This document shows, in pieces, positions 11,492 through 30,890 of a stretch of 64,000 nucleotides of DNA. Every line of letters begins with the position of its first letter. Position 1 is the stretch's first letter. Under the pieces are notes generated by a model that was given only the letters and a program-made list of their open reading frames with translations, was not told the DNA's origin and did no database searches. The position numbers were made by a program, and so were the translations under genes. Source of the stretch: an uncultured Chloracidobacterium sp. (lineage in GTDB: Bacteria; Acidobacteriota; Blastocatellia; Chloracidobacteriales; Chloracidobacteriaceae); contig CALCKX010000002.1 in assembly GCA_937966115.1 (NCBI GenBank), positions 19,988 to 83,987 on the forward strand. Reading direction: 5' to 3'.

Positions 11492-11548
11492 CCGGGACTC
11501 CGGTTTCTCGAGCGACGCCGGTTGCCTGGGCGACGCCGGCGCGCCAGG

Positions 11549-12772: not shown

Positions 12773-13525
12773 ATGGTGTTAAACCAGACTAGAATGAAAT
12801 CGGCAACTCAATCCGCGGACTGGCCGCCCCTGCGGTCGGCGACAGCCCATCTGTGGTGGCTGAAGCTGTCGCCGGCGGAGGCGGACGCGGCGCTCCAGGA
12901 CATCCTGAGCCCCGCCGAGCGCCGGCGGGCGCGCCAACTGCGCCGACCGGGCGCGGCAAGCCGCTTTTGCCTTGGCCGCGCTCACTTGCGCCGCATCCTG
13001 GGCGAATATCTTGGGGCGCCGCCGGAATCGCTCCAGTTCGCCTATACGCCCAATGGCAAGCCCTACCTGCCGGAGGCCCCGCGCTTGTCGTTTAACTTGG
13101 CGCATGCCGGCGACCTGGGACTGCTCGCCGTGGCGGATGGTCGCCACGTTGGCGCGGATGTCGAGCTGCCCGGCCCGCCCGCCCGCTGGCTCGCCATCGC
13201 CCGGCGGTGCCTGCCTGAGAGCGAGCGCCGGCGCCTCCAGGCGCTGCCTGAGGAAGCGCGAGCGCGGGCGGTGCAACGGAGCTGGACGCGCCAGGAAGCG
13301 TTCCTCAAGGCGAGCGATCAGGCCTCGCTGCGACGACTGCTCCGACTGGAAATGCCTTGCGCCGCCAGCCCAGGCCAGTTCACGATACGGGACGCGCAGG
13401 GCTGCCACTGGCTGGCGCAGGATGTCGCCCGGGCTGGCGCGATCGGCGCGCTTGTCGTCGAGCATCGGCCAAACGAGCGACTCGAGGTTTTGAGCTTCGC
13501 TTGGCCCGGACGGGAGCGCCTATGA
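12773..13525 (+). CDS. Sfp/HetI-type 4'-phosphopantetheinyl transferase
   Basis: 'LSPAERRRA', 'NGKPYL', 'FNLAHAG', 'VGADVE', 'WTRQEAFLKA'. Start codon uncertain. Confidence 0.88.
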   Translation: MVLNQTRMKSATQSADWPPLRSATAHLWWLKLSPAEADAALQDILSPAERRRARQLRRPGAASRFCLGRAHLRRILGEYLGAPPESLQFAYTPNGKPYLPEAPRLSFNLAHAGDLGLLAVADGRHVGADVELPGPPARWLAIARRCLPESERRRLQALPEEARARAVQRSWTRQEAFLKASDQASLRRLLRLEMPCAASPGQFTIRDAQGCHWLAQDVARAGAIGALVVEHRPNERLEVLSFAWPGRERL

Positions 13526-15300: not shown

Positions 15301-15480
15301 CGCGCCCGGGCGACTGACGCGAGCGGCGACGCGGAAACGATCCGCCGCCCATCTGGGGCCTGGCTTGTCTCGGGAGGCTCGTCGCCCCCGGCAACCCCAA
15401 AATATGCCGGAAAAAGCGCCTGCGCGACGCCTGCGTCGAAAGCGCTCCGCTCGCTTAAATCGCCCGGGGAAGGGCGCGAG

Positions 15481-17115
15481 CTACTCGGCTGCCGGCGAGA
15501 GCTGGCCGCCCGGCGCGGGCTTGGCGACCTTCACGCCCAGCCCATTGAGCAGCGATGCCACGCCGACGTAGCCATAACCAATGACAAAAATGGAAAGAAA
15601 AGGCAAAACGCCCCAAATTTCACTTTGAATGGCATAGATAATTGCCAGCAAAAAATACGCCGTCATCGCAATTTCAAGGAGAGGCAGCCAGCCCATCGTT
15701 CTTCGGTATTTCTTTCCCTGCCAACTCCGCCCTTTCTCATTTTGGTTGATAGCGTACTTAGGCGTTCTGACAAAACCGCTTTGAATGCCAAACAAAGCTT
15801 CTAAAACAGCTTTTGCATTACTGATTGAGATGCCAACGCCAATTGACATGGCCAGGTAAATCATCAGTAAATCTTTCCATCGCTTGCCGTGCAGCTCCTT
15901 GAGCGATATGAAATAGTAAGAAGTCACTGAAAAAGTCGAAAGGAGCAAGAACGGAATATCCAGGAGCATGAGATGGAAGAGGCCCTGATTATAGCGAACG
16001 ATCAAAACTGGCAAGTGCAGCAAGTGGAATACAACCATCAACGGGTAGATAAGATTGCCCGATAAATGAAAGAAAGTTTCAATCTTGGCATGAAGCGGCA
16101 GGTTCAGGCCACCCAGGCGGGGTAGAATCTTGAGGGCGACTTGCGTGTAGCCCTTTGCCCAGCGACGCTGCTGAACCTTGAAAGCGTTGATATCGACCGG
16201 AAGCTCTGCCGGCACGTCCTCGTCGAGGACATAAACAAACTTCCATCCCAAAAGCTGCGCTCGGTAGCTTAGGTCGGTATCCTCAGCCAGCGTGTCCGCC
16301 TGCCAACCGCCCGACCGCTCGATGGCTTCGCGCCGCCACATGCCGGCTGTCCCGTTGAAGTTGAAGAAGCCGCCGCTCCGATGCCGGGCGGTGTGCTCAA
16401 TGACAAAATGCCCATCGAGCAGGACGCTTTGCACGCGGGTCAGGAGATTGTAATCCGCATTGAGATGGCTCCATCTGAACTGAACGACGCCGACGCGCGG
16501 TTCCGTAAAATAATGAATCATTTTACGGATACAGTCCGGCTTGGGCTGAAAGTCAGCGTCAAAAATCAGAATGAACTCCCCTTTGGCGACTTTGAGCCCC
16601 TCGCCCAAAGCGCCAGCCTTGAAGCCTGTTCGATCCTTTCGGTGGAGATAAACGATATCGAGACCTTCGGCGGCATAGCGATCCACCGCCGCCTTGGCAA
16701 TGGTCTGCGTCTCATCAGTCGAGTCATCCAAAACTTGAATCTCAAGCTTTTCCTTCGGATAGTCCAGGGATGCGCAAGCCGCCAGAAGACGCTCGACAAC
16801 ATACATCTCGTTGAAAAGCGGCAGCTGAACTGTCACGCGCGGCAGGGCGTCTTCGCCAAACATCGCCTTTGGCTTCGGCTGGAAACTATGGTAGCGCAGA
16901 AATAAATAGGTAATGCGAAGGCGGTATAAGCCATAGACAGCAAGAATGAAGAGCAGTCCAAAATAGAGCGCGAAGATTGTCCAGTCAAGCCCATCGAGAG
17001 TGTAGAGATAGCTTATGTTATTTGTTCGAGTAAATTTCTCCAGACTGGGAATGCTCGAAAAGTCTCTCTCGAAAATGCTTGAGAAAGATATTTCCCATGT
17101 AGAAAGCGTTGTCAT
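15481..17115 (-). CDS. Processive membrane glycosyltransferase family 2 (cellulose synthase-like/mannan synthase-like)
   Basis: VTVQLPLFNE, LDDSTD, GFKAGAL, FDADF, AEDTD, QQRRW; C-terminal TMs; 'FVRTPK'. Confidence 0.92.
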   Translation of the reverse strand: MTTLSTWEISFSSIFERDFSSIPSLEKFTRTNNISYLYTLDGLDWTIFALYFGLLFILAVYGLYRLRITYLFLRYHSFQPKPKAMFGEDALPRVTVQLPLFNEMYVVERLLAACASLDYPKEKLEIQVLDDSTDETQTIAKAAVDRYAAEGLDIVYLHRKDRTGFKAGALGEGLKVAKGEFILIFDADFQPKPDCIRKMIHYFTEPRVGVVQFRWSHLNADYNLLTRVQSVLLDGHFVIEHTARHRSGGFFNFNGTAGMWRREAIERSGGWQADTLAEDTDLSYRAQLLGWKFVYVLDEDVPAELPVDINAFKVQQRRWAKGYTQVALKILPRLGGLNLPLHAKIETFFHLSGNLIYPLMVVFHLLHLPVLIVRYNQGLFHLMLLDIPFLLLSTFSVTSYYFISLKELHGKRWKDLLMIYLAMSIGVGISISNAKAVLEALFGIQSGFVRTPKYAINQNEKGRSWQGKKYRRTMGWLPLLEIAMTAYFLLAIIYAIQSEIWGVLPFLSIFVIGYGYVGVASLLNGLGVKVAKPAPGGQLSPAAE

Positions 17116-17140
17116 ATTTTTTTCTCAATACGCCTGAAAG

Positions 17141-18547
17141 TTATTTTATGTTGTAGTTCTTGATCTTGCTATTGAGGGTCGTAGGGTTGAGTCCAAGCAG
17201 CTTGGCGGCTTTGCTCTGATGGTTATGCGTCAGATCCAGCGCCCGCTGGATCAGCTCTATCTCGAACTGAGCGACCACGTCGTAGAAGCGTATGCCCTGC
17301 GCGACATCGAGCTGCGCGGACAGCAGCCTGCCCGACAGGGACGGCGACGCGATGCGCGCCGGCGGATTGAGAATCTCATCCCTCAGGCATTCCATGGACA
17401 ACTGATTCGAGCGCGAAATGACGACCGCCCGCTCGATGACATTTTCAAGCTCCCGCACGTTCCCGGGAAACGGGTAAGCCTCGAGCAGCGCCAGCACATC
17501 CGGATCAATGTCCTCAACCATCTGGCGCTGGTTCTCGGCGTTGTACTTGCGGATGAAGTGCCGCGCCAGCGGCAGAATATCCTCCGGGCGCTCGCGCAAG
17601 GGCGGCATTTTGATGGTGATGACGTTGAGGCGGTAGAACAAATCCTCCCGGAACTTCCCCTCCGTCACCGCCTGCTTCAAGTCGAGGTTCGTGGCGGCGA
17701 CGATTCGCGCGTCCACGCGGCGAGGCGTGGTTTCCCCAAGCGGGATGAATTCTCGCTCTTGGATGACTCGCAGCAGCTTGCTCTGCGTTTCAAAGGAGAT
17801 GTTGCCAATCTCGTCAAGGAACAGCGTGCCGCCGTCAGCAATGTCGAATAGCCCTTTCTTAGCCGTGAAAGCGCTGGTGAAAGCGCCTCGCGCGTGACCG
17901 AAAAGCTCGCTTTCAAGCAATTCCGTCGGGATGTTGCCGCAATTGACCGGGACGAACTGCCCCGTTTTCGCCCGCGGGCTGGCAAAGTGAATGGCGCGGG
18001 CGATGAGTTCCTTTCCAGTTCCTGACTCGCCCGGACTGAGCACCGGGGTTCGCGCCGGGGCGACTTGCTCCACGAGCGCCAGAATGTCGCGCATGACGGC
18101 GCTGCGGGCGATGATGCCGTGCTTGTCGGCGCTTTGTTGCAAAGCGCGCTTGAGCTGGGCGTGCTCCTCGTCCTTGCGGCGGCGGCGAATGCCAGCCTCG
18201 ACGACGCGCAAGATGTCTTCGTTCTCAAATGGCTTGCGGATGCAGTTGAAGGCGCCGCGCTGCCAGGCGCTGACCGCCGTCTCGAACGTGGCGTAGGCTG
18301 TGATCATGACCACGATGGCTTCCGGGTCGAGGGTCAGCAGCGCATCGAGGGTCGCCAAGCCGCCCATGCCTGGCATCGAGACATCAAGTAACACGGCGTC
18401 AAAGATGTGCTCGCGGTAAAGCTGTAGCCCTTCCTCGCCGGTTCGAGCGAGCTTGACGTTGTAGTTGGCGCCGGAGAGAAGCGTCTCCAGCACATCGCGC
18501 ATAATCTCCTCGTCGTCAACGACGAGCAGCGATCCCTTCCTTGGCAT
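17141..18547 (-). CDS. Sigma-54-dependent NtrC-family response regulator (REC-AAA+-HTH)
   Basis: REC 'LVVDDE', 'LDVSMPG'; GESGTGKE; ESELFGH..GAFTSA; LFLDEIG; FREDLFYRLNV; FPGNVREL; Fis-type HTH. Confidence 0.93.
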   Translation of the reverse strand: MPRKGSLLVVDDEEIMRDVLETLLSGANYNVKLARTGEEGLQLYREHIFDAVLLDVSMPGMGGLATLDALLTLDPEAIVVMITAYATFETAVSAWQRGAFNCIRKPFENEDILRVVEAGIRRRRKDEEHAQLKRALQQSADKHGIIARSAVMRDILALVEQVAPARTPVLSPGESGTGKELIARAIHFASPRAKTGQFVPVNCGNIPTELLESELFGHARGAFTSAFTAKKGLFDIADGGTLFLDEIGNISFETQSKLLRVIQEREFIPLGETTPRRVDARIVAATNLDLKQAVTEGKFREDLFYRLNVITIKMPPLRERPEDILPLARHFIRKYNAENQRQMVEDIDPDVLALLEAYPFPGNVRELENVIERAVVISRSNQLSMECLRDEILNPPARIASPSLSGRLLSAQLDVAQGIRFYDVVAQFEIELIQRALDLTHNHQSKAAKLLGLNPTTLNSKIKNYNIK

Positions 18548-18549
18548 GG

Positions 18550-19899
18550 TCAGCTCTGCGCAAGCAGCTTCTCTTCGGCTGAGCCTGACCGCTGAAGCTG
18601 CTCCAAAACGGTAAAGAAGCCTGGAAATGACACGCCTACGCAAGCCGGGTCGTCAATAAAGGTAGGACCCTCGGCGACCAGCGCCCCGATGGCAAACGCC
18701 ATGGCGATCCGGTGATCGCCGGCCGTCTCGATTGTCGCGCCGCGGAAGCGTTGCCTTCCAGGGATCGTCAGCCCGTCAGCGCGCGCTTCCAGCTCGACGC
18801 CCATAGCACGCAAGTTGCGGGCAATCAGCGCGAGGCGGTCGCTTTCCTTCACGCGCAGCTCGCTCGCGTCAGTCACGTGGAGACCGCCAAAATAAGCTCC
18901 CAGCACGGACAAGACGGGAATTTCATCGATGGCGTTAGCGGTCAGCGGGCCCTCCAAGCGGATTTGCCGTTGCGGGCGCGCCGTCGTCGAGCTGACGAAC
19001 AAGTCGCCGATCGGCTCGCCGCCCTCCAGGCGCTCATTCCTGATGTCAAGGCTCGCCCCGGCGTCGCGCAGCGCCGTCAACAGCCCGGCGCGAGTGGGAT
19101 TCAATCCAACGCCTTCAAGGCACACCGCCGCGTCTTCAACCATAAGCCCGGCCGCCAGCAGGAAGGCGGCCGCCGAAAAGTCGCCTGGCGCGCGCAATCG
19201 CCCCGGGCTTTGCAGCCGATAATCGCCAGAAACCCGGCGCGTCGCGCCGCTCACGACGACCGGAACGCCAAACGCGCTAAGCAGTCGCTCCGTGTGGTCG
19301 CGGGTCGGGATTGGCTCAATCACGACCGTTTCGCCAGCGGCAAAGAGACCGGCCAACAGCAGACAGGACTTCACCTGCGCGCTCGCCAGCGCGGACTCAT
19401 GGGTTATGCCCCGCAAGCGACCGCCGCGAATGACGAGCGGCGCGAGGTCATCCTCCGCAGCCGAGATTGTCGCGCCCATGCGCCGCAGCGGCTCGATGAC
19501 GCGACGCATCGGGCGGCGGCGCAAGGAAGCGTCGCCAGTGATCACGGTTTCGAAGGGCTGACCGGCCAGAATCCCAGCCAGCAGTCGGATGGTCGTTCCG
19601 GAATTGGCGGCGTCCAGCGCGCCCGAGCTTGGCCGCAAGCCCGATCTTCCAACGCCCTGGATGAGCAAGCCCTCGGCGGTCGCCTGCGCGGCGACGCCCA
19701 GTCGCCTCAGGCACTCTAGCGTCGCCAAGCAGTCAGCGCTCGCCGAATAGCTCTCAATCAAGGTTTCGCCGTCAGCGATGGCGGCCAGCATCGCCATTCG
19801 GTGCGAAATGGATTTGTCGCCGGGCGCCCGAACCCGCCCGCGCAGGCGACGCGCCGGCTCAAGCCGCCGGGCCATGGCAGCCTCCACCGCTCCGCTCAC
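18550..19899 (-). CDS. aroA: 3-phosphoshikimate 1-carboxyvinyltransferase
   Basis: PGDKSISHR, NSGTT.RL, RPM, SAQVKS, RDHTE, ELRVKESDR, DHRIAM. GTG start overlaps the prkA stop; alternative ATG at 19875. Confidence 0.96.
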   Translation of the reverse strand: MSGAVEAAMARRLEPARRLRGRVRAPGDKSISHRMAMLAAIADGETLIESYSASADCLATLECLRRLGVAAQATAEGLLIQGVGRSGLRPSSGALDAANSGTTIRLLAGILAGQPFETVITGDASLRRRPMRRVIEPLRRMGATISAAEDDLAPLVIRGGRLRGITHESALASAQVKSCLLLAGLFAAGETVVIEPIPTRDHTERLLSAFGVPVVVSGATRRVSGDYRLQSPGRLRAPGDFSAAAFLLAAGLMVEDAAVCLEGVGLNPTRAGLLTALRDAGASLDIRNERLEGGEPIGDLFVSSTTARPQRQIRLEGPLTANAIDEIPVLSVLGAYFGGLHVTDASELRVKESDRLALIARNLRAMGVELEARADGLTIPGRQRFRGATIETAGDHRIAMAFAIGALVAEGPTFIDDPACVGVSFPGFFTVLEQLQRSGSAEEKLLAQS

Positions 19900-21827
19900 C
19901 GCGACAGCAAGCTTCCCACGTAGTTGAGCAGCTCGTTGGCGCTTTCGGACGTGTAGCCATGCTTTTTCACCAATCGGTCAATGACTTCATTAATTCGCCG
20001 CAACTGGTCCGCATCCGGAGACTTGGTTGAGGTCGTGATTTTGACGATATCCTTCAGGTCGGCGAAAATCTTCTTCTCGATGGCCTCTTTCAGTCGCTCG
20101 TGCGAATTGTACTCGAACCGCTTCCCCTTACGAGCATACGTCGAAATGCGAATCAGGATTTCCTGTCGGAACATGTTTTTGGCGTTTTCCGAAACGCCAA
20201 TTTGCTCCTCAATCGAGCGCATCAATCTCTCGTCCGGCTCCATTTCTTCCTCAGTAATGGCATCCTTGAGCTTTTCCTTGTTGCAGTAGGCTTCCACATT
20301 GTCAAGGTAGTTATCGCAGATGCTCTTGGCCATTTCCTCAAATGAATAGACAAACGCCCGCTGAACTTCTGTCTTGGCGATTTCGTCATATTCCTTGCGC
20401 ACCAGGGCGATCAAATTCAAATACCGCTCGCGCTCCTCGGTTGTGATCCCAGTGTGCTGGTCAAAGCCATCCCGGATGGCGCGCAGCGCGTCAATGGGCG
20501 TGATATATTTTTTCGACTCTTGCACCAGCGCGTTTGACAGCCGATTGATAATGTAGCGGGGCGAAATGCCGAACATGCCTTCGCGCGCGGTCTCCGCCTT
20601 GAGCTCCTTGACATCCTTGCTTTTGAACCCGTCCACATCCTCGCCGTCGTAAAGCTTCATCTTTTTGACCAGGTCCACATTGGCCCGCTTGGGCGCTTCG
20701 AGGCGCGTCAGCACGGCGAACATGGCGGCGACCCGCAGGGTGTACGGGGCGATGTGGACGCCCTGCAGGCTGCTTTGCGAAAGCAGCTTCTTGTAAATCC
20801 GCTCCTCTTCCGAGACCTTGAGATTGTATGGGACCTTGATCATGATGATCCGGTCCTGGAGAGCCTCGTTTTTCTTGTTTCCGACAAAGGATTGATACTC
20901 ATTCTCGTTGGTGTGCGAGATAATCACCTCGTCGGCATAGATCATGGCGTAACGCCCGGTTTTGATGGCCTGCTCCTGCGACAAGGTCAAGAGCGAGTAG
21001 AGAAACTTTTCGTCGCACTTGAGAATTTCAATAAACTCCATCATGCCGCGGTTGGCCACATTTAGCTCGCCGTCGAAGCGATAGGCTCGCGGATCGCTTT
21101 CCACGCCGACCTCGCCAATGGTTGAAAGGTCAATCGAGCCGGTCAGCTCGGAGACATCCTGCGACTTGGGATCGCTGGGCGCGAAGGTGCCAATGCCAAC
21201 GCGGTCTTTTTCAGAGAAAACGATCCGCTCGACAATGACGTCCTCGTGCCGCCCCTTGTAGGTATGCTCCAGATCGTAGCGCGCCTGCGGGCTAAGCTCG
21301 CCCTCGATATAAATCCCGTAGTGCTTCTGAATTTCCGGGCGCAAGTCCTGGGGAATGAGATGCATGGGGTCGCCATGCATCGGGTCGCCCTTGATGGCGT
21401 ACACCGCGCCGGCCTCGGAGCGCGTCCACTTCTCAAGCCCGCGCTTGAGGAGCGTCACAATGGTGGACTTGCCGCCGCCGACCGGCCCCATCAGTAGCAA
21501 AATGCGCTTGCGCACTTCCAGACGCTGAGCGGCCGACTTAAAATACTCAACCAGCTGCTCAATCGCCTCATCGATGCCGAACAGCTCGTCGCTAAAAAAG
21601 TTGTAGCGCGTCATCTCGTCGCGCGTCCCTTCATTGATGACAGTCGTGCCAGCGGCGAGAATCATGTCGCAGATGCGGGCATGCGCTAGTTGCGTCAGCT
21701 TGGGGCGCTTGACCGCCATCTCGAAGTACTCGCGGAATGTCCCTTCCCAGTGAAGCGAGGCGCGGTCGCGCCGATGCGCTTCCAGCAGTTGGGCGATGTC
21801 GGGCTTGGAGTTTTCAGTGTCAGACAT
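19896..21827 (-). CDS. prkA: PrkA/YeaG-family AAA+ serine protein kinase
   Basis: 'ILLLMGPVGGGKST', 'ESDPRAYRFDGELNVANRG', 'HTNENEY', 'EALQDR', 'GISPRY'. Confidence 0.93.
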   Translation of the reverse strand: MSDTENSKPDIAQLLEAHRRDRASLHWEGTFREYFEMAVKRPKLTQLAHARICDMILAAGTTVINEGTRDEMTRYNFFSDELFGIDEAIEQLVEYFKSAAQRLEVRKRILLLMGPVGGGKSTIVTLLKRGLEKWTRSEAGAVYAIKGDPMHGDPMHLIPQDLRPEIQKHYGIYIEGELSPQARYDLEHTYKGRHEDVIVERIVFSEKDRVGIGTFAPSDPKSQDVSELTGSIDLSTIGEVGVESDPRAYRFDGELNVANRGMMEFIEILKCDEKFLYSLLTLSQEQAIKTGRYAMIYADEVIISHTNENEYQSFVGNKKNEALQDRIIMIKVPYNLKVSEEERIYKKLLSQSSLQGVHIAPYTLRVAAMFAVLTRLEAPKRANVDLVKKMKLYDGEDVDGFKSKDVKELKAETAREGMFGISPRYIINRLSNALVQESKKYITPIDALRAIRDGFDQHTGITTEERERYLNLIALVRKEYDEIAKTEVQRAFVYSFEEMAKSICDNYLDNVEAYCNKEKLKDAITEEEMEPDERLMRSIEEQIGVSENAKNMFRQEILIRISTYARKGKRFEYNSHERLKEAIEKKIFADLKDIVKITTSTKSPDADQLRRINEVIDRLVKKHGYTSESANELLNYVGSLLSR

Positions 21828-21976
21828 GGCAGCGACTCCCGTCATGGACGATGAAATGCAAGATTCAGACGCGGGCGCCTGCGTCGGGGACGCAAGTCGG
21901 GCAGGCGAAAAGTATGGGCGCATTTGGCGTTATCGTCAATTGCTCGCAGGGCTGTCCGAAGGGCTAGGCGATTCCG

Positions 21977-22441
21977 GTGAAACTCACGCTCTATCTTGAA
22001 ACCTCGGTTGTCGGAGCTTATCTCGACAATGACGATTCCTTCCGCCGCGACTTGACCATGCGGTGGTGGGAACACGATATGCGGGAGTATCGCGCCTTTG
22101 TCTCGCCGCTCGTCCGGCATGAGCTGGAGCGACTCGCCGAGCCGCATCGCTCGGCCTATCTCAACCTCATTCAGCCCCTGCCACAGCTGCCGTTGCGCGA
22201 CGAAGCGGCCATGCTGGCCGCCGGCTACCTTGGCGGCGGCATTTTTCAGCGACGCTTCCTGGCGGACGCGCTCCATGTCGCCCTGGCTTCTGTTCATAAC
22301 ATAGACTTTTTTGTAACCTGGAACTTCGGGCATATTGCTAGCGTCCATCGCCAGGCGCGGGTCCGGCGCTTCAATCTCGTCAGCGGCTTTCCCTGTCCGA
22401 TCATTGTCACGCCGGAGTTCTTGGTCACCACCGGCGTCTGA
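21977..22441 (+). CDS. PIN-domain (VapC-like) nuclease
   Basis: 'LYLETSVV', 'S.LV..EL', 'DALHVALA', 'FVTWNFGHIA', 'PIIVTPE'. GTG start. Confidence 0.85.
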   Translation: MKLTLYLETSVVGAYLDNDDSFRRDLTMRWWEHDMREYRAFVSPLVRHELERLAEPHRSAYLNLIQPLPQLPLRDEAAMLAAGYLGGGIFQRRFLADALHVALASVHNIDFFVTWNFGHIASVHRQARVRRFNLVSGFPCPIIVTPEFLVTTGV

Positions 22442-22557: not shown

Positions 22558-23697
22558 ATGGCGAAACGGGTTCTGCTAGTTGAGGATGATGCGACCATCG
22601 TCCAGATCGTGTCCAAGTGGCTGAGCCGCTACCGGGAAGAGTTTGAAGTCGTCACAGCCGAGCATGGACGCGCCGCGCTCGACGCCCTGGCGCGGCAACC
22701 AGCGGATATCGTGGTCACGGACCTGCAAATGCCCGTCATGGATGGCTTCGAGCTGATCGCCCACTTGCTTAGCGAAGCGCGGCGAACGCCGATCATCATC
22801 ACCACAGGCATGCCGATCGGCGATGTCGAGACGCGGCTCGGCAAGGTCGGAGACTTTCCGGTGCTCGGCAAGCCGCTCAGCGTCAGCGCGCTCTACAGCG
22901 TCATCCGCAATGAGCTGGACGCTCTCCAGCAAGGCGTGATCCAGGGCTTGACGCTGGCGTCGTTCCTGCAACTGCTGGAAGTCGAGCGCAAAAGCTGCGT
23001 GCTCCGCGTCACCGCCGCCGGCCGCGTCGGCTATCTATATTTCAGCGACGGCGAGCTCATCCATGCCGAGACGGGCCAACTGGCAGGCGAAGCCGCCGCC
23101 TTTGACATCCTGCTCTGGGAAGGCGTCAAGCTTCAGATGAGCGCGCCGCCGGCTGAGCTCCCGCCGCAGACGCTCCACGACCGGCTCATGGGCTTGCTCA
23201 TGGAAGCCTTTCGCCGCCGCGACGAAGCGGAAGCCAAGCGCCGCCCCGCCGCGCCCAAGCCGCCGGATCAGAGCGCAACGGCTGAGCTGGCCCTGAGCGC
23301 TTTGTCGGAGACGGAAGCGGAAGGCGACTGGAACGACGCGGCGCAAGCCATCGGCGACAAGCGACGACTGCCCGACGCGGCGGCGCAAGCCGCCGAAATG
23401 CTTCTTAGGCTGACCCATCAGCTTCTCCACGCCGGCGTCGAAGCCTCGAAAGCTTACGCCGTCGAGCCGGAGCTGCGGCGCCGCGTCAACGCCGACGATC
23501 TTCCGCAAGAGACCATCAACTTGCTGCGTCTCTTCGATGGTCATCTCCAACTTGGGGAAATCCTCGCCCGCGCATCGGACCAAGCCGCCGCCATTATGTT
23601 TCTCGCGAGCGGCCTGAAGGCCGCCGGCTTGCTGCGCGAAGTCAAAAGCGACGCTCCGGCGCCGGACATCGCCCCGCCCCCGACGCCTGGCGACTAA
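22558..23697 (+). CDS. Response regulator, REC + DUF4388 (PatA-like)
   Basis: 'LLVEDD', 'TDLQMPVMDG', 'GKP'; 'IQGLTLASFLQLLEVERKSCVL...GYLYFSDGELIHA'. Confidence 0.88.
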   Translation: MAKRVLLVEDDATIVQIVSKWLSRYREEFEVVTAEHGRAALDALARQPADIVVTDLQMPVMDGFELIAHLLSEARRTPIIITTGMPIGDVETRLGKVGDFPVLGKPLSVSALYSVIRNELDALQQGVIQGLTLASFLQLLEVERKSCVLRVTAAGRVGYLYFSDGELIHAETGQLAGEAAAFDILLWEGVKLQMSAPPAELPPQTLHDRLMGLLMEAFRRRDEAEAKRRPAAPKPPDQSATAELALSALSETEAEGDWNDAAQAIGDKRRLPDAAAQAAEMLLRLTHQLLHAGVEASKAYAVEPELRRRVNADDLPQETINLLRLFDGHLQLGEILARASDQAAAIMFLASGLKAAGLLREVKSDAPAPDIAPPPTPGD

Positions 23698-23972
23698 TAT
23701 GTTTCGCTCCCTCCCTGGCGCCTCATCCCTGGCGCGATTCCTGGCGCGGCCGCCCGCTCGTCGCGCTCTTGTCGCGCGGGGCGGCTCGGATGAAGCGTCG
23801 CTGGCGGCGACGCTCGACGCGCCCGCTTCAAAGCGGCAGCGTCGTCGCCAGCGCAGGCGCTGCGGGATGGCGGAACTGAGCGCCAGACTGAAGCGCTGGC
23901 AAAGCCGCCTCCGCAAGCATTGCTTGTCGCCAACGAATGCGCCCGAAGCCCTCGCGTTGGCAGCGCCTCCAT

Positions 23973-24002
23973 CAACGCTCGCGATGCCAACGCTCGCGAT
24001 GC
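23973..24002 (+). repeat. 15-bp perfect direct tandem repeat in an intergenic region (possible enhancer site)
   Basis: caacgctcgcgatgc x2. Confidence 0.85.
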
Positions 24003-24120
24003 GCCGCTCAGGGAGCGAATCAGTGACCAAAGTCTGGAAAAACCGCCTTGCCCCTGGTAATTTCAGTCGCGTCAGGCTACTCTCGGATCGCTTTCAACGC
24101 CACTCCAAGCTTCTCTTGGC

Positions 24121-24138
24121 CTGGCCGAGGGTTTGCTT
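24121..24138 (+). promoter_or_regulatory. Putative sigma-54 (-24/-12) promoter
   Basis: CTGGCCGAGGGTTTGCTT: GG (24123-24124), 10 nt, GC (24135-24136). Matches TGGC-N7-TTGC(A/T)-type spacing and lies upstream of the 24.2-30.9 kb gene run. Confidence 0.55.
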
Positions 24139-24241
24139 GTGATACCGAGCAAGCGGAACCGTCAGGGCGCCCGCTTGCCAGGGCGTCAGGACGGTGACGT
24201 TCAAAGCCGTCATCCAAATCAGCTCACAGGTGTCGCTCGTC

Positions 24242-25009
24242 ATGCCGCTCAACGATATTTCCATTTCGCCATCATTTTCGTCAGCGCCTAGCGAGCGCCT
24301 TTCAGTCCGGCAACTGCCCGCCCTGACCCGTCTCATCTACGGATGGTGCGCAAGCGTCGTCAATCGCGCGCTCGCCCGCTTCCCGACGCTCCAGCATGGG
24401 CTTCACCGCCTCGAGGAGGCCGAGCAAACCATCCGCCGATTGCGCCAGGAGCGAGACGAAGCGCTCGGCTTTTTGCGGGAGCGCAACTATGAGCTGGAGC
24501 GTTACGATACGGCGGCGCGCAACTTCTTCTCGGCCGTCAACGAGGCTTCGCGGGAGCTGGAAGATATCCGGCAAGCTCTATTGACTCATCAGGCGCGGGT
24601 TGCCGACCATGCCGAGCAACTCAAGCTTTACATTCTCCGCTTGCAGCAGAGTCTCCGCGAGGCGGCGCTTGACATGGAAGACGCTCAGTCTGAGCTCGAC
24701 GGCATCAAGTCGGCTTTTCAGGACCACCGGCGGCAGGTGGATGAGCGAGTCAGGCGCGCCGGGACGGCGACGCTCGACCTATTCAACGCCCTGCAAGAGG
24801 CTGAATCCGAGCTTGCGATATTAGAGCGACAAGCGCGCCGACATCAAAAAACAACATCGCGCGTCTATGGAGAAGCGGCGGCCGAAAATGAGCGATTGTC
24901 GCGGGAGCTGAACGTGATCGTGGCGGAAGTCGCGCAGACAAACAACCTTACGGTGGCGCACATCAACCAGCTCGAAGCCGAGCTAGCCGCCCTGCGCAAA
25001 GGTCGTTGA
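24242..25009 (+). CDS. Hypothetical long coiled-coil protein
   Basis: Heptad-rich Leu/Glu/Arg/Ala/Gln helix of about 200 aa. Start uncertain (GTG 24194 or ATG 24242). Confidence 0.7.
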   Translation: MPLNDISISPSFSSAPSERLSVRQLPALTRLIYGWCASVVNRALARFPTLQHGLHRLEEAEQTIRRLRQERDEALGFLRERNYELERYDTAARNFFSAVNEASRELEDIRQALLTHQARVADHAEQLKLYILRLQQSLREAALDMEDAQSELDGIKSAFQDHRRQVDERVRRAGTATLDLFNALQEAESELAILERQARRHQKTTSRVYGEAAAENERLSRELNVIVAEVAQTNNLTVAHINQLEAELAALRKGR

Positions 25010-25109: not shown

Positions 25110-25805
25110 ATGAAAACCAACTCCTACGTTCTGCGGCGGATCATTCAGGAGACGCCAGATGTGCGCTCATTCATCTTTGACTTTGGCGATTCCCCCTTCA
25201 GCTTTACGCCTGGGCAGTTTGTCATCTTCCGCCTCGATGACAAGCGGCAAGCGCCGCTTACCCTTAGCTCCTCCCCGCACGATCAGAAATACTTTCAAGT
25301 CACAGTCAAGCGAACCGGGAATTTTGGCACCCGATTCTACGATCAGATGCAGGTAGGCGACGCTGTCTCGATTGGCGAGCCGATGGGAAATCTCAAGCTC
25401 GATGTCAACGCGAGCGATCCAGTTTGCTTTATCGGCTCAGACTACTGCATCCCGGCCGCGCGGAGCTTCTTCTATTATATCCTCATCCGCCAGCCGCAGC
25501 GTCGAATCACGCTCTTTCACGAGCTGACCGACCCAAGTCAGGCGCTTTATGATAATGAGTTCAAGCACTTCGACCAAAACAGCCCGCTGACCAGGGTTCT
25601 CATTCTCAACCAGCTAATCCGCCCGCCGGGCTGGATGGGCGGACTAGGACGCATCACGCCGGTGATGCTCAGAAGTCTGTATCTTGAAAACCCGAATACA
25701 AAGTTTTACGCTGCTGGGGAATATCCAGAAACAAAGTTTTACCAACAAGCTCTTCAGTCTGCCGAGATTCCGAAGCAGAGCATTGTTGTCGAGCGATGGA
25801 GCTAG
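25110..25805 (+). CDS. Ferredoxin-NADP reductase-like FAD-binding oxidoreductase with degenerate motifs
   Basis: 'IIQETPDVRSF', 'FTPGQF', 'LSSSP', 'VTVKR.G.F', 'PMGN', 'GRIT', C-terminal 'ERWS'. Confidence 0.8.
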   Translation: MKTNSYVLRRIIQETPDVRSFIFDFGDSPFSFTPGQFVIFRLDDKRQAPLTLSSSPHDQKYFQVTVKRTGNFGTRFYDQMQVGDAVSIGEPMGNLKLDVNASDPVCFIGSDYCIPAARSFFYYILIRQPQRRITLFHELTDPSQALYDNEFKHFDQNSPLTRVLILNQLIRPPGWMGGLGRITPVMLRSLYLENPNTKFYAAGEYPETKFYQQALQSAEIPKQSIVVERWS

Positions 25806-25809
25806 CCTT

Positions 25810-26283
25810 ATGAAAACGCTGACGCTGCAGCCGATCAACAAAACGATCTCGGTCAAGACGGACACCAAGGTGCTTGACACGCTACTGGCTTCGCAATGCG
25901 AAGTCGCCATGGCCTGTGGCGGCATGGGGCTGTGCGCGACCTGTCACGTCTTCGTCATTAGGGGCGAGCAGGCGCTGACGCCGCGCACTGAGCGCGAGAT
26001 TCGCACGCTTGGCACCATTACCGGCGCCACGGCTCGCTCGCGGCTTTCCTGCCAGGCTCGCATCATTGGCGACGGCGTGGTGGTTGAGCTTCCCGAAGGC
26101 ATGTATCTTCAAAGCATTGAAGATCTGCGCGCGCTCGTCGGGAAGCGCGCCGAGGCCCCTATCCTGCACCCGCGCGACGGAAGAGTCCTTATCGAGCGTG
26201 GGAAAATTATCACGAAGTCGCGAATTTTAGAGCTTGAAGGCGAGGACTTCGACATGACAAAATTAGCGGCGTCGGCCTCGTGA
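25810..26283 (+). CDS. 2Fe-2S ferredoxin with C-terminal extension (Synechocystis Slr0148/Fd5-like)
   Basis: CGGMGLCATC...RLSCQ Cys pattern; extension 'ELPEGMY...LVGKRAE..ILHPRDG.VLIE.GKIIT'. Confidence 0.9.
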   Translation: MKTLTLQPINKTISVKTDTKVLDTLLASQCEVAMACGGMGLCATCHVFVIRGEQALTPRTEREIRTLGTITGATARSRLSCQARIIGDGVVVELPEGMYLQSIEDLRALVGKRAEAPILHPRDGRVLIERGKIITKSRILELEGEDFDMTKLAASAS

Positions 26284-26425
26284 AGTCGCCTCCTCGCTGC
26301 GCGCAAGCGCTTGCGCCAGGCTTTGCCTGGCTTCAAGGCTGATCTGACATTGACTGACATGACCTTCCCGAGCGATCCTGTCAAGCCAAACCCAACCTAC
26401 TCTTCACCTGAGGAGCGCTTATTCA

Positions 26426-27088
26426 ATGGCAATCAACGTAGCGGATGGCGGCATCAAAAACTACCATAACTATTTCGTTCCCGAGGATTTTCTGTCCCGC
26501 GACGCGCGCACGCGCACCATTCGGCTGCGGGATGGGCAGCGCGGCGTTTACGCTTCCGAGGATTTTATCGTCAGCTTGCACAGCGGACTCAACGAAGAGG
26601 TTGGCGACGCTTCCAATCTCGTGATGTACAAGTCCGGCTATGAATGGGGCGTCAGCGACATGAAGCGATTCGCCGAGAAAATGCGCCACGAGTTCGGAGG
26701 CGGCAAGCTCGATATTTGGCAAATGAACCGCAAGTTCGTTCTCGAATCCTGGTGGTGGCCGCTCACGACCGAGGGCTGGGGTGCCTGGGCCATTGACTTT
26801 AGCTTCGAGAAGCAGGGCATGGTGTTTGTCACCATCAAAAACTCCGCGGTCGCCAAGGCCATGGAGCAAGTCGGCAAGCCGGTTTGCTACATGTACGCCG
26901 GCATGTTCGCCGGCGTGTTCAGCGTTTTCGACCGCGAGGAGCGGGGCGGCATTGAGGTTCAGTGCTATTCCATGGGCAACGACTGCTGCAAATTCATCGT
27001 CGGCTCGCAAAAGAAGGTCAATGCGGCTGAGTTCTGGCGGCGAGAAGGGGCCACGGCCAAGGAAATCATGGAAAAGCTCGTTGACTAG
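26426..27088 (+). CDS. V4R-domain protein (Slr0144-like)
   Basis: RBS GAGGAG; 'EDFIV.L..GL.EEVG', 'ESWWWP...GWG', 'GKPVCYMYAG', 'EVQCYSMG...CKF', 'AAEFW..EGATA'. Confidence 0.88.
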   Translation: MAINVADGGIKNYHNYFVPEDFLSRDARTRTIRLRDGQRGVYASEDFIVSLHSGLNEEVGDASNLVMYKSGYEWGVSDMKRFAEKMRHEFGGGKLDIWQMNRKFVLESWWWPLTTEGWGAWAIDFSFEKQGMVFVTIKNSAVAKAMEQVGKPVCYMYAGMFAGVFSVFDREERGGIEVQCYSMGNDCCKFIVGSQKKVNAAEFWRREGATAKEIMEKLVD

Positions 27089-27151
27089 TCGCGTCGCTTA
27101 GCGGCGTTCACTCTCAACAGCATCAACTCATTTAGAAGGACGCTCATCCCC

Positions 27152-27652
27152 ATGGCGACTATCAGTTTCACACTTCCCAAGGAACTGCTCGACGAGCAGG
27201 AGGCTTTGCTGGAGCGCATCGCCCGCTGCCGCGAAAAGCTTAGCCTTGCCGTCCAACGCGCGCGCGCGGCGCTGAGTCTGGAAGACACGGCAGAAGTCTT
27301 TTTTGGGGAGCAGGTGCCGTGGGCCAAGCGCGGCGGCGCGCCGATTCGCGCCGCCATCGCCCGCCCGGCTTCGACGCGCCTGACAGCGGCGACCCGGATG
27401 ACGGGAGAGCTTGCGCCGCCGCCGGCAGCGCGCCTTGCTCCGGTCCTTCCGGCCCGGACTCCCGCCCCCGCGGCGGCCGTTGCCGGGACGGCCGCCGATG
27501 AAATGACGGCGCTGGCTTTCTTCGAGAGCATTCCCTGGGGGTCGAGCGGCGTTGGCAAGGTATCCAAGTCGCCTTGGTCAAGCCCTGGCGCCAGCGACTT
27601 TCTACGCGCCGCGACGGAAAGCGCCGTGCGCGCGTCGCAATCCAAGAGCTGA
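27152..27652 (+). CDS. Hypothetical protein with repeated FF-x(3,4)-PW motifs (possibly Slr0146-like)
   Basis: Same strand within the cluster; motifs 'AEVFFGEQVPW' and 'ALAFFESIPW' separated by a Pro/Ala linker. Confidence 0.65.
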   Translation: MATISFTLPKELLDEQEALLERIARCREKLSLAVQRARAALSLEDTAEVFFGEQVPWAKRGGAPIRAAIARPASTRLTAATRMTGELAPPPAARLAPVLPARTPAPAAAVAGTAADEMTALAFFESIPWGSSGVGKVSKSPWSSPGASDFLRAATESAVRASQSKS

Positions 27653-27789
27653 GGCCAACTCAGAGTCGAGGCGCGCGGCGACGACTTTGCGCGCCAAGCG
27701 GCTGAAGACTCGCCGCGCCCTCGGGCAACCAGACGACGCCGGACCAGACGCTGGATGGCTATGACCTTTCACCGGAGGACCCTTTTTCA

Positions 27790-28389
27790 ATGACAGCGCC
27801 AGCTACTGTGATTCAACCGCATCGCCACCCTGACCTGGCGGACATGTTTCGGCAGGCCGAAGGCAAGTACTTCACGGATGTCGAGCTTGCCAAGCTCGAA
27901 AGCTATTATCCGAGCCTCTCGGCGCACATCGAGGCCGCCAAGGACGTGCGCGCCAAGGAAACCGGCATCGTCGGGCGGAGCGTAAAAGAGATTTACGCCA
28001 TGTATCCCTACGAGCAGCATCACGAGCATGCCACGGCCAAGTGCGTTCGTGACGCGCGCTATGTGCTTTCCTACGCGACGCTCTCCATGCTGATTGACGA
28101 CACGCGGTGGTTTGAAGATAAGCTTCTCATCTGGATGAAGACCATCTTACAGGCGTTTGAGTTCCCGGAAACCGGACAGACTGACGCCATGCGCGAGGCG
28201 TTCGCTAAGATTGATCCCGCCCTGGCAAACCGGCTCAAGCCGTTCAAGGGCAAGGTCAAGTCCATTTATCACATGTACTACGTCATCAAGCGCGAGTGTC
28301 AGCAAACGTTACAGCCGAATAGCTTTCGACTGATGGAACCCTACCTTGACCTCGCCATGAACGTGCTTTCGGAGGACTACGGAGCGTGA
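27790..28389 (+). CDS. Phycobiliprotein-fold (allophycocyanin/globin-like) protein
   Basis: RBS GGAGG; 'AEGKYFTDVEL..L..Y' (compare AD..GRYL...EL), 'MYP', 'AKCVRDARYVLSYATLSML.DD' (compare CLRD..Y.LRY.TYA). Confidence 0.8.
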   Translation: MTAPATVIQPHRHPDLADMFRQAEGKYFTDVELAKLESYYPSLSAHIEAAKDVRAKETGIVGRSVKEIYAMYPYEQHHEHATAKCVRDARYVLSYATLSMLIDDTRWFEDKLLIWMKTILQAFEFPETGQTDAMREAFAKIDPALANRLKPFKGKVKSIYHMYYVIKRECQQTLQPNSFRLMEPYLDLAMNVLSEDYGA

Positions 28390-29030
28390 TGCTTGCTACA
28401 ACCGACTTACTCGAAGGTCTCGAGAATTTCTTTGACGAGGCGCGCCTCGGCTTCGATCTGCGTGAAGGCACGCTCTGGAATCCGGCCAAGACGCGCCTAT
28501 GCCTGCTCTCCACCGATTTCCTGACCGGCGTGTATGCGGCGGTCAAGGATGAGGCAGGTCCCGCCTGGCCGGTCATCTTCAAGACCTGCGGCCGGATTTG
28601 GGGCGAGCGCATCATGCGCCGCCTGGAACGCGAGGCGCAGACGGTCGGCAATCTCCAGCTCCGCGAAATGCCAGTGACGATGTTTTTGCGCTTTTTCCGC
28701 GAATACTTCGTCTATCACGGCTGGGGTCTCATGGCGATTGATGTCGCGCAAGCGCGCGAGACGGGCATCGTGACCGCCTCGCTGGAAGACTCGATTTTCG
28801 CTGAAATTATCCGCGACGAGGAAAATTTCTCAGACCCCATGATCGCGGGCATCCTCGCCGGGATGCTCAGCCACATCAGCGGTCACGAACTCGATTGCGT
28901 CCAGACCGAGTGCATTTCGCGCGGCGCTGAAGCCAGCCGCTTCGTGGTGACCGGCGCGGCGCGTCTCCGCGGCGCGGAAGACAAAATCAAGGGCGGCATG
29001 ACGCACGAGCAGGTTGTCGCCAGCGTGTAG
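28389..29030 (+). CDS. Second V4R-domain protein (Slr0147-like)
   Basis: Start overlaps the upstream stop (GTG 28386 or ATG 28389); 'CGRIWG', 'HGWG', 'AGILAG', 'LDCVQTECISRGA...RF'. Confidence 0.85.
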   Translation: MLATTDLLEGLENFFDEARLGFDLREGTLWNPAKTRLCLLSTDFLTGVYAAVKDEAGPAWPVIFKTCGRIWGERIMRRLEREAQTVGNLQLREMPVTMFLRFFREYFVYHGWGLMAIDVAQARETGIVTASLEDSIFAEIIRDEENFSDPMIAGILAGMLSHISGHELDCVQTECISRGAEASRFVVTGAARLRGAEDKIKGGMTHEQVVASV

Positions 29031-29138
29031 GCTGCCGGCGCGCAGGCTTCTACCTTGCTCACGCCGGCGCGATGGCTCGGCTCGGCTATCCGCGCCGAGC
29101 CATTGCGGATAGCGCAGGTTATGGAGCGAGCTTCGGCT

Positions 29139-30890
29139 ATGGCATACGAAAATCTCAAACTCATCGGCAGCGGAGCGCACGCCGTCGTCCACCTGGCGCG
29201 GGACACCCTCACCGGCGAGCTTTATGCAGTCAAGGAATTCCTGGGCGGCGGCAAGGCCGCCCATCTCTTTTTCCGCGAGCTGTCTTCGCTAGTGGCGCTT
29301 CAGCATCCCCACATCGTCCGGTGTTTCGATGTGATTTACGGGCAGGGCAACCAGCGCAACAAGCTGGTGCTGGAGTATGCCGCCGGCGGCAGCCTCCGAG
29401 ATATGCTCAACCAGCGCGGCGCGCTGCCCCTGGCGGAAGCCATCCAGGTAATGCGCGACGTCGCGGCCGGACTCAGCTACGCCCACGACCGCCAGGTTTT
29501 GCACCGCGACCTGAAGCCGGAAAACATTCTGGTCTTTCCTGATCCGAGCGCCGGGACAACCACCTACAAGGTTGCCGATCTAGGCATTGCCAATCATTTG
29601 GCAAACGTTCTCGACCAGCAGAAGCCGAATGGCTCGCCGGCCTACATGGCGCCGGAGCAGTTTTATGATTCCTCAACCTACGCCAGCGATCTTTACTCGC
29701 TAGGCATCATTTTTTACGAGATTCTGACTGGCGACCGGCCATTTCATGGCCTGGCGGCCGAGCTGTTCGCCAAGCACGCCAAGGAGCCGCCGGATTTGCG
29801 CCCCATCCCCGAGGGGGCGCGGCCCATTGTCGAAGCCCTCCTGCGAAAATTGCCCGGAGAGCGCCTGCGCTCGGCGCACAGCCTACGCGCGGCGCTCGAC
29901 AACTGCCTAGGGTCAACCGCTTCCCTGCCTGCGCCGGAAGCTTTCAGCGCCGCGCCGGCAGTCGCTGCGTCGCCGGAAGCGGAGTTGGAGGCGACTCAGC
30001 GGCTCGAGCCGTGGTTTACGGTTGAGCTAGCCGGCAGTCAGCGACTTTTCACGCTCAACCCGGCGCAGCGCCCAACGGTCTATATCGTGGATGAGCGGAC
30101 GACCGGCTTTCTGGAGCTTGAGCGACGGCGCTTCGTCCCCTACTTCCTGCCGGAGCGCATCTGCGCCGCCGCGACTTCCAGCCCCGCGTCAACGACGAGC
30201 TACTTTGCCACCAATCAAAGCCTTTACGCGCTCAAAGCGGACCGGGACGCTCCACAACGATTGTTTCAGCTTCGCCTTCCAGTCACGAGCCTGGCGGTCA
30301 CGCCGTCGGAGACGCTGCTCGTTCTGGCCAATCAGAGAGGCGCCTTCGGCTATTCGCCCGAAGGCCGCCAGCTCTGGGAAGTCGAGTTATGCAACTACTT
30401 GCAGTCGCCTCAGATCATCATCCTCGGCGAGGATGATATCCTCGTCGCTTCCGGCCCGATTCGACCGGCCGTGACCTGCCTCGACGCGAGCGGCGGCATC
30501 AAGCGCCGAATCCCGCTCTCGTCTCCGGCGCTATCCATTATGCGCTCATCGATCGGAGGCGACTTTCACGTCGCGCTCTTTGGCGACGGCAGCCAGCGCC
30601 CCATGCGGATGGCCACCTTTGCCGGCGACCGTCAAGTGGCTGAAATGGATTTGGGCGAGCCGGTCTATGCCGCCAATCATCATGGGCATTTCACGACATT
30701 TTTTCATTCCTCCGGGCGGGTTTCGCTGGTTTTGGACGGATTGCCAATTGCCGAATATCGGCCGGACGGTATGATACTCGACGACGCCTGGTCGCCAGCG
30801 GCGCGAGCCTATGTCAATATAGAGCGTCGGTTGCCGCGCACCTTCATCAACGTTTTTCGCCTCATCGCCACGACGCCAGCCACGCTTTGA
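29139..30890 (+). CDS. Hanks-type Ser/Thr protein kinase with beta-rich C-terminal region (SpkG/Slr0152-like)
   Basis: IGSGAHAVV, AVKE, FFRE, HPHIV, HRDLKPENIL, ADLG, GSPAYMAPE, DLYSLG; no TM segment seen. Confidence 0.92.
   Translation: MAYENLKLIGSGAHAVVHLARDTLTGELYAVKEFLGGGKAAHLFFRELSSLVALQHPHIVRCFDVIYGQGNQRNKLVLEYAAGGSLRDMLNQRGALPLAEAIQVMRDVAAGLSYAHDRQVLHRDLKPENILVFPDPSAGTTTYKVADLGIANHLANVLDQQKPNGSPAYMAPEQFYDSSTYASDLYSLGIIFYEILTGDRPFHGLAAELFAKHAKEPPDLRPIPEGARPIVEALLRKLPGERLRSAHSLRAALDNCLGSTASLPAPEAFSAAPAVAASPEAELEATQRLEPWFTVELAGSQRLFTLNPAQRPTVYIVDERTTGFLELERRRFVPYFLPERICAAATSSPASTTSYFATNQSLYALKADRDAPQRLFQLRLPVTSLAVTPSETLLVLANQRGAFGYSPEGRQLWEVELCNYLQSPQIIILGEDDILVASGPIRPAVTCLDASGGIKRRIPLSSPALSIMRSSIGGDFHVALFGDGSQRPMRMATFAGDRQVAEMDLGEPVYAANHHGHFTTFFHSSGRVSLVLDGLPIAEYRPDGMILDDAWSPAARAYVNIERRLPRTFINVFRLIATTPATL

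Follow-up and report, generated by a model that had tools for sequence, protein, structure and literature searches.

We analysed a 64,000-nt stretch of a metagenome-assembled genome (MAG) of Chloracidobacterium sp. (GCA_937966115.1, contig CALCKX010000002.1), referred to below as the window. In this stretch, an original prediction had singled out a run of genes resembling the photosystem II (PSII) assembly (Pap) operon slr0144-slr0152 of Synechocystis. The MAG has a size of 2.8 Mb, a completeness of 85%, and a mean GC content of 0.65. All coordinates are window positions. Genes were typed by Pfam matches to the translated open reading frames (ORFs) of the window, and L-numbers (such as L007 or L081) denote loci from other genomes that were compared with it, with L003 reserved for the reductase locus on contig C139. 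The ORFs and Pfam matches revealed a co-oriented run of genes on the + strand, at 22.5-31 kb, that extends from a REC-DUF4388 regulator through a Ser/Thr kinase and contains the following features.

22558..23697, + strand: REC-DUF4388 (PATAN-type, PatA-like) response regulator; Pfam Response_reg and DUF4388
24122..24137, + strand: sigma-54-like -24/-12 element, uncertain, before the coiled-coil gene; 2 mismatches to the consensus
24194..25009, + strand: coiled-coil protein, 271 aa; no Pfam family above the cut-off
25110..25805, + strand: FNR-like protein; FAD_binding_6, E 2e-4, just over the cut-off
25810..26283, + strand: 2Fe-2S ferredoxin, 157 aa, of the Slr0148 (Fd5) type; Fer2; the ORF opens at 25684
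26426..27088, + strand: V4R-A (Slr0144-like); V4R, E 6e-16
27152..27652, + strand: slot protein, 166 aa, low-complexity; no Pfam family; predicted Slr0145 counterpart
27790..28389, + strand: BBAG, a phycobiliprotein-family globin; Phycobilisome PF00502, E 1e-21
28386..29030, + strand: V4R-B (Slr0147-like); V4R, 30.2 bits against a cut-off of 31
29055..30890, + strand: SpkG-type Ser/Thr kinase, 611 aa; Pkinase, E 2e-46; membrane segment absent

The seven co-oriented genes that had been predicted, from the FNR-like gene to the kinase, were thus found to be real and correctly typed, and the extras listed with them, the PatA-like regulator at 22558-23697 and the coiled-coil ORF at 24194-25009, are present as well. 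The true start of the ferredoxin is the ATG at 25810, which lies 4 nt past the stop codon of the FNR-like gene. The GTG start of V4R-B overlaps the stop codon of the globin, and V4R-B is predicted to be translationally coupled to it; in most loci carrying V4R-B, the gene is found no more than 50 nt behind the globin. Shine-Dalgarno-like sequences were found ahead of most genes of the run. A promoter and terminator scan, whose matches were no commoner than in shuffled sequences, identified no intergenic terminator inside the run.

The core of this run has been described before. Rockwell, Martin and Lagarias reported in 2023 that non-cyanobacterial bacteria carry clusters of an Fe-S protein, two V4R proteins of distinct clades, and one or two BBAGs, usually together with a heme oxygenase and also with a pre-PcyA bilin reductase (PMC10151467). 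They named Chloracidobacterium as a carrier and recorded that heme oxygenase is absent from that genus. In the same work, BBAGs were found to bind bilins unaided and to fluoresce weakly, the members of pre-1 clusters were often scattered elsewhere in the genome, and phylogenetic analysis placed the cyanobacterial slr0144-slr0149 genes as descendants of non-cyanobacterial BBAG clusters, with the genes neighbouring them in Synechocystis being set aside for lack of conservation evidence. The first pre-1 enzyme to be assayed showed poor activity on biliverdin (PMC10151467). A 2026 preprint by Frascogna et al. (doi 10.64898/2026.05.08.723791) reported that pre-1 enzymes typically have Glu at the position of PcyA Asp105 and that one of them turns biliverdin into 3E-phytochromobilin. 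Neither the 2023 paper nor the preprint discusses a kinase, and the supplement of the 2023 paper contains nothing on Chloracidobacterium or on kinases.

We conclude that the run is very probably the Chloracidobacterium version of this pre-PcyA (pre-1) associated BBAG/V4R/Fe-S cluster. It shares with the BBAG-1 clusters (PMC10151467) an Fe-S protein, one V4R protein per clade, a globin with a CxRD motif, and a pre-1-type ferredoxin-dependent bilin reductase (FDBR) in the genome; heme oxygenase is missing, in agreement with what the paper records for Chloracidobacterium. The differences are that the papers cover the core genes only and that the reductase is unlinked in Chloracidobacterium. The suggestion that this was an undescribed system had to be dropped: the core cluster is published, though functionally unsolved, and the same genus is already recorded as a carrier. 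What appears to be new, judging from the gene content of the compared loci, is that the propeller kinase, the slot protein, and the REC-DUF4388, FNR-like, and ParA-like genes recur with the core, which would modestly extend the published description.

The order ferredoxin, V4R-A, slot protein, globin, V4R-B, and kinase recurs in loci of many phyla, and the arrangement is therefore not a product of chance. The neighbourhood survey outside Cyanobacteria confirmed in this way that the genes are conserved together. The best matches of the globin itself are proteins of Chloracidobacterium MAGs (83-94% identity). In its CxRD motif, K84, R87, and D88 are invariant among 18 homologs, and C85 is present in at least 90% of them. 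The window globin has the PF00502 domain and the chromophore-cysteine motif CxRD in common with light-harvesting phycobiliproteins. Those are paired alpha and beta subunits, whereas the window globin is single, and the characterised BBAGs are weakly fluorescent, non-antenna proteins (PMC10151467).

An FDBR gene (PF05996, 44.7 bits) was found outside the cluster, on contig C139 (L003:9082-12010). The real start of the reductase is probably near 9409, and behind it come a third gene for a V4R protein, at 10267-10848, and one for a ParA/CbiA-like ATPase, at 11090-12010. In a Gemmataceae MAG, the reductase, V4R, and ParA/CbiA-like genes are contiguous with the cluster, and the reductase lies physically inside the cluster in other phyla. 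The C139 reductase is 42% identical to a cluster-embedded reductase and has Glu at the PcyA Asp105 position. No solved structure was matched when it was used as a single query; a five-sequence profile, built from it and its cluster-linked relatives, matched solved FDBRs with an E-value of 5e-20.

For comparison with Cyanobacteria, we used a Pannus brasiliensis locus, reached by a V4R-A search of representative proteins, whose gene order is the published slr0144-slr0151 order. Reciprocal BLAST gave the following identities.

Ferredoxin versus the 160-aa Slr0148-like ferredoxin: 47% over 150 aa, extension included
V4R-A versus the Slr0144-like protein: 45%
V4R-B versus the Slr0147-like protein: 32%
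Globin versus the two cyanobacterial globins: 29% and 21%

These reciprocal matches, together with a motif shared by the slot protein (below), bear out the proposed homology to the slr0144-slr0152 set. The set has counterparts in the window of Slr0144, Slr0145, Slr0146/0149, Slr0147, Slr0148, and Slr0152 of Synechocystis sp. PCC 6803, and the sub-order V4R-A, slot protein, globin, V4R-B is common to both. The window differs from the Pap operon in having one globin only, in placing the ferredoxin first, behind an FNR-like gene, in lacking Slr0150 and Slr0151, and in belonging to a host without PSII. The TPR gene was correctly said to be absent, as neither Slr0151 (TPR) nor Slr0150 (plant-type ferredoxin) had a match in the window or in the non-cyanobacterial loci.

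The kinase at the end of the run probably starts at 29121 or 29139 and has its kinase domain at approximately residues 30-290. The residues K60, E75, H150-x-D152, N157, and D175 and the APE motif are invariant in 13 orthologs. Residues 314-611 (DNA 29994-30887) were modelled as a 7-bladed WD40-like beta-propeller with a pLDDT of 92, and the best structural matches of the model were WDR5 chains (TM 0.69). The C-terminal region of the cyanobacterial cluster kinases was likewise modelled as a 7-bladed propeller (pLDDT 87). The profile-profile comparison of the propellers was borderline (hhalign probability 63%), and the window propeller profile gave only two 22-bit matches in 301 cyanobacterial genomes, both unconvincing, and nothing convincing in 9 cyanobacterial cluster kinases. 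A Hanks-type kinase with a beta-propeller sensor domain is known from Mycobacterium tuberculosis, namely PknD. An N-terminal Ser/Thr kinase and a C-terminal beta-propeller are common to both; unlike PknD-like kinases, the window kinase is predicted to be cytoplasmic, without a membrane segment, with a 7-bladed WD40-like propeller, and it is tied to one cluster.

We then looked at how often such a kinase accompanies the cluster. Of 22 non-cyanobacterial loci taken from species-representative genomes, 15 could be assessed on their contigs, and in 14 of these V4R-B is followed by a kinase with a full-length alignment; a kinase also follows V4R-B in three further loci, from Gemmataceae, Planctomycetaceae, and Sumerlaeia. 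In one locus (L009:4137-5776), the cluster kinase is split into two overlapping ORFs, reflecting a frameshift or an assembly error. A Slr0148-like ferredoxin was detected in 55 of 301 sampled cyanobacterial genomes. Among 20 of these ferredoxin-bearing cyanobacterial loci that were fetched, 9 have a cluster kinase (586-667 aa), which in 3 of the 9 stands directly after the Slr0147-like V4R (L075, L078, and L080). In the catalytic domain, eight of these nine kinases are 36-42% identical to the window kinase, the ninth (L075) being 29% identical over a longer alignment of 433 aa. This compares with 25-30% for cyanobacterial non-cluster kinases and 29-35% for 33 other Hanks kinases of the host, whose 2.8-Mb genome contains at least 33 further Hanks-type Ser/Thr kinase genes (tblastn).

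A maximum-likelihood tree of the kinase domains was constructed from 61 sequences and 274 columns, with 32 same-genome paralogs and 7 cyanobacterial non-cluster kinases as the outgroup. The 13 non-cyanobacterial and 9 cyanobacterial cluster kinases formed one clade (SH-aLRT 95), within which two sub-clades have supports of 97 and 99, mirroring the published pattern of the core genes. The claimed relationship of the kinase to SpkG is upheld by this grouping with the kinases at the end of the cyanobacterial clusters, and the tree indicates that the SpkG-type kinase is an ancient member of the cluster.

The gene between V4R-A and the globin encodes, in every locus examined, a low-complexity and poorly conserved protein of 120-320 aa. 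The window protein of 166 aa is largely disordered. The slot proteins carry a motif, [FY][FLW]xx[LVIF]xW, often at the extreme C-terminus, and an AATESA-type motif is likewise conserved. The first motif was found 23 times in 15 proteins, against 0.08 expected from composition-preserving shuffles, and its density is 6.5 per 1000 residues, against 0.18 across all ORFs of the loci. BLAST detected no match between the 124-aa Slr0145-like protein and the window slot protein; the 124-aa protein carries the motif three times. By this shared motif, the slot protein appears to be the counterpart of Slr0145 and an ancient member of the cluster. The motif persists from Planctomycetota to Cyanobacteria, so the partner surface is expected to be highly conserved. 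We infer that V4R-A and the ferredoxin may be the best candidates for this partner and the poorly conserved propeller a worse one.

The ferredoxin has the ligand pattern Cx5Cx2C...C and a conserved C-terminal extension of about 60 aa. There are 236 homologs of equal length. The four ligand cysteines (C36, C42, C45, and C81) are invariant, and T17 and residues of the extension are invariant or nearly so; in a set of 121 homologs, Thr17 never varies and position 71 is either Thr or Ser throughout. A fusion of a cluster-type ferredoxin with a Ser/Thr kinase domain is encoded in a Gemmataceae MAG (L081:6306-7904), its ferredoxin part being 50% identical to the window ferredoxin over all 157 residues. 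The fusion is a second copy of the ferredoxin, located between a heme oxygenase gene, which directly precedes it, and the stand-alone ferredoxin. A spkG mutant of Synechocystis is reported to have lost the phosphorylation of Fd5 (Slr0148; Angeleri et al. 2018, as cited in PMC11863333 and PMC10651672). On these two indirect grounds, the ferredoxin of the window is a candidate substrate of the kinase.

In the FNR-like protein encoded just upstream, the RxYS flavin motif is replaced by APLT-SS and the GGxGxxP nucleotide motif by G-x-D-Y-x-I. The replacements are identical in kind across all orthologs, and the protein therefore represents a settled divergent family rather than a decaying gene. Orthologs were found in the acidobacterial relatives and also in L017 and L024, where they adjoin the bilin reductase.

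V4R-A is the best conserved protein of the cluster, with 60-96% identity across phyla. Its invariant residues C154, E177, C180, and C188 form a Cys-x22-Glu-x2-Cys-x7-Cys set that aligns with a stretch of the MopR sensor domain, which we take to be the structural zinc site of MopR. V4R-B lacks this Cys-Glu-Cys-Cys set. Pairwise identities assign the two proteins to different clades, V4R-A being 45% versus 28% and V4R-B 32% versus 25% identical to the members of the cyanobacterial V4R pair; these are identities and not a V4R tree. The V4R fold is shared with MopR, PoxR, and DmpR (PDB 5kbe, 5fru) and with MJ1460 (2osd). The sequence match of the window proteins to the solved V4R structures is weak (E 0.1-0.9) and, unlike MopR, PoxR, and DmpR, they are stand-alone proteins without an AAA+ or DNA-binding output.

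We next considered the host. Genes for an FMO protein and a PscA-like type-1 reaction centre were found side by side in its genome. Neither the MAG nor three complete genomes from its genus gave a match to type-2 reaction-centre proteins (PF00124). The globin of the window is the sole PF00502 gene of the whole genome, so the paired subunits of a phycobilisome antenna are missing (linker and lyase families were not searched separately). The host belongs to the anoxygenic phototrophs among the Acidobacteriota; it has FMO and a reaction centre of type 1 but neither PSII nor a phycobilisome. It had rightly been taken for a non-cyanobacterial organism lacking PSII and phycobilisomes; the FMO and PscA-like genes show that it is not a plain heterotroph.

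Among 40 relatives, the globin was present in 6 of 6 genomes of the same genus, in 3 of 3 genomes of a second FMO-positive genus, and in 2 of 31 FMO-negative genomes. When 301 genomes were sampled evenly across the phylum, it was found in the host genus only. Beyond this, the cluster is spread over Acidobacteriota, Verrucomicrobiota, Planctomycetota, Pseudomonadota, Vulcanimicrobiota, and Sumerlaeia. This patchy distribution fits horizontal transfer and a role that is not tied to oxygenic photosynthesis. Two loci labelled Actinomycetota (L008 and L009) have a ferredoxin and V4R-A that are 80-90% identical to those of Chloracidobacterium, with the other cluster genes being less similar. Throughout their clusters, synteny is kept with the cluster of a Blastocatellia MAG (L010), and one of the contig names reads 'Acidobacteria'. 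The Actinomycetota labels are probably wrong.

Taking these results together, the best overall explanation, to which we assign a probability of roughly 60%, is that the run is a BBAG cluster with an SpkG-type kinase that functions as a module for linear-tetrapyrrole handling and signalling. How such a module would signal can be proposed only tentatively, from the sequences, and the scheme is somewhat more likely to be wrong than right. In this scheme, the ferredoxin would donate electrons to the bilin reductase, yielding a reduced linear tetrapyrrole; the V4R proteins would hold or pass on the hydrophobic pigment; and the globin would take up the pigment on Cys85, within its CxRD motif. Using its propeller for docking, the kinase would phosphorylate the cluster ferredoxin, by analogy with SpkG and Fd5, and perhaps also the slot protein. 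The output would be exerted via phosphorylation and possibly via the REC-DUF4388 regulator too. The unit would then be a pigment-dependent signalling switch, neither an antenna nor a PSII factor. The more general view that the genes form a sensing and phosphorylation unit rather than a PSII factor, already put forward in the original prediction, seems reasonable.

Several observations weigh against a tetrapyrrole-handling and signalling module. A canonical heme oxygenase (PF01126) had no match in the MAG, at its completeness of 85%, or in five relatives that are 99-100% complete, so that the pigment may have another source, or the cluster a metabolic role. In complete relatives, the reductase lies about 1 Mb from the globin. 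An electron-transfer chain from reductase to ferredoxin is doubtful, because the FNR-like protein has lost the usual flavin and NAD(P)H motifs. The kinase is absent from many cyanobacterial clusters, and its tree comes from a quick search with a limited outgroup. Finally, Thr17 and Thr71 of the ferredoxin are equally conserved in loci without a kinase gene; as they are kept with or without a kinase at the locus, their conservation is no proof of phosphoregulation.

The most substantial alternative is that the cluster is a metabolic unit, which processes or detoxifies a breakdown product of a tetrapyrrole, such as a (bacterio)chlorophyll or heme catabolite, in the manner of RCCR, with the kinase only tuning it. 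The reductase and the Cys-bearing globin have been retained despite the lack of a canonical heme oxygenase, and the globin accompanies FMO in all 10 FMO-positive genomes among the acidobacterial relatives, against two of 31 FMO-negative ones. V4R is also the domain found in BchJ, a protein believed to handle precursors of chlorophyll. The poor activity on biliverdin of the first pre-1 enzyme assayed (PMC10151467) also points in this direction. Against a metabolic unit, the second reduces biliverdin well (doi 10.64898/2026.05.08.723791), many non-phototrophs carry the cluster, mostly together with a heme oxygenase, regulators (kinases and REC-DUF4388 proteins) abound in the clusters, which argues for signalling, and the association with phototrophs comes from two related genera only. 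On this evidence, we regard a metabolic unit as unlikely.

It is more improbable that the cluster is a redox or oxygen sensor, in which the ferredoxin and the Cys-rich V4R-A would sense, the globin would bind heme or nothing, and the C139 reductase would be unrelated. Such a sensor would account for the invariant Cys/Glu set of V4R-A, for a dedicated ferredoxin with a conserved extension, for an FNR-like partner without normal cofactor motifs, and for a reductase that is unlinked in this genus. The Cys/Glu set, however, presumably corresponds to the structural zinc site of MopR and not to a redox centre, the reductase lies inside the cluster in other phyla, and the CxRD cysteine is conserved in a globin whose relatives attach bilins (PMC10151467). 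Most improbable of all is a Pap-like set for photosystem assembly or repair, with the chlorosome or the type-1 reaction centre as its object. The genes are homologous to slr0144-slr0149 and slr0152, the literature ties the Pap operon to both PSII and PSI, and the cluster co-occurs with FMO in the acidobacterial relatives, all of which would favour it, but the host has no PSII genes and the cluster is widespread in non-phototrophs (Gemmataceae, Verrucomicrobiota, and Thiomargarita). Moreover, slr0150-0152 may be what causes the assembly phenotypes of the Pap operon, and many Cyanobacteria can do without the cluster (PMC10151467).

Returning to the module for tetrapyrrole handling and signalling, a bolder version of it would be that an ancient pigment-gated kinase system, made up of the propeller kinase, its ferredoxin substrate, and a multivalent motif protein, was passed jointly from heterotrophs into Cyanobacteria, and that Chloracidobacterium uses it with a non-canonical linear tetrapyrrole, for example a (bacterio)chlorophyll breakdown product. 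We consider this a long shot; if true, an anoxygenic phototroph would have its signalling coupled to the turnover of its pigments. Phycocyanobilin synthesis is believed to have originated from the core cluster, and so, at a greater remove, are phycobiliproteins. If the kinase, ferredoxin, and motif protein travelled with this core, through at least six phyla and Cyanobacteria, its function could be tested as a signalling question. Co-inheritance of the kinase, if true, would also place the SpkG-Fd5 finding of Synechocystis, so far unexplained, within a module of far greater age. Chloracidobacterium offers an instructive exception, with the reductase and the chromophore cysteine kept and a canonical heme oxygenase not found.

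We also examined the accessory genes and the neighbours of the cluster. A REC-DUF4388 gene upstream of the cluster ferredoxin was also found in Blastocatellia (L007, L008, and L010), in Verrucomicrobiota (L013 and L014), and in a MAG labelled Blastochloris (L017). A sigma-54 activator gene divergently adjoins the REC-DUF4388 locus in L014 and L017, and in L013 and L017 the REC-DUF4388 gene has a near-perfect -24/-12 site ahead of it. The sigma-54 activator of the window lies at a distance of 4 kb, with aroA, prkA, and a PIN gene in between. The site at 24122-24137 was rejected as a conserved feature: with two mismatches, such sites occur in the window at chance frequency, and it is absent from L007, L008, and L010. 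Homologs of the coiled-coil protein were found only in close acidobacterial relatives (50% identity in L007 and 26-29% in L008 and L010), and the protein appears to be a lineage-specific accessory. A 147-aa ORF at 23699-24142 has no homolog in any locus; it was dropped and is probably not a gene. The gap of 497 nt between the regulator and the coiled-coil gene contains a perfect 15-bp tandem repeat (23973-24002); the corresponding gap in the closest relative is 150 nt. The downstream HtrA, DUF4870, and ATP-grasp genes were considered as parts of the module and rejected, as they are syntenic in close relatives only.

More distant loci (L012, L014, L016, L017, L018, L021, and L024) contain additional genes after the kinase. 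These encode a protein of about 200 aa that belongs to no family, a protein of 1400-1800 aa with a faint protoglobin match, and, in some loci, a DUF3386 protein. Two ParA/CbiA ATPases were also found in more distant loci. Of these extras, only the ParA-like gene has a counterpart in the host, where it lies beside the reductase.

The region upstream of the run (13357-22441) is rich in regulators. It contains a PAS histidine kinase with a PilS-like membrane domain (13357-15300), a sigma-54 response regulator (17141-18643, - strand), PrkA (19896-21923, - strand), and the PIN-domain gene (21977-22441). At the far end of the window, the GC content falls to 0.45 at 62001-64000, compared with the genome mean of 0.65.

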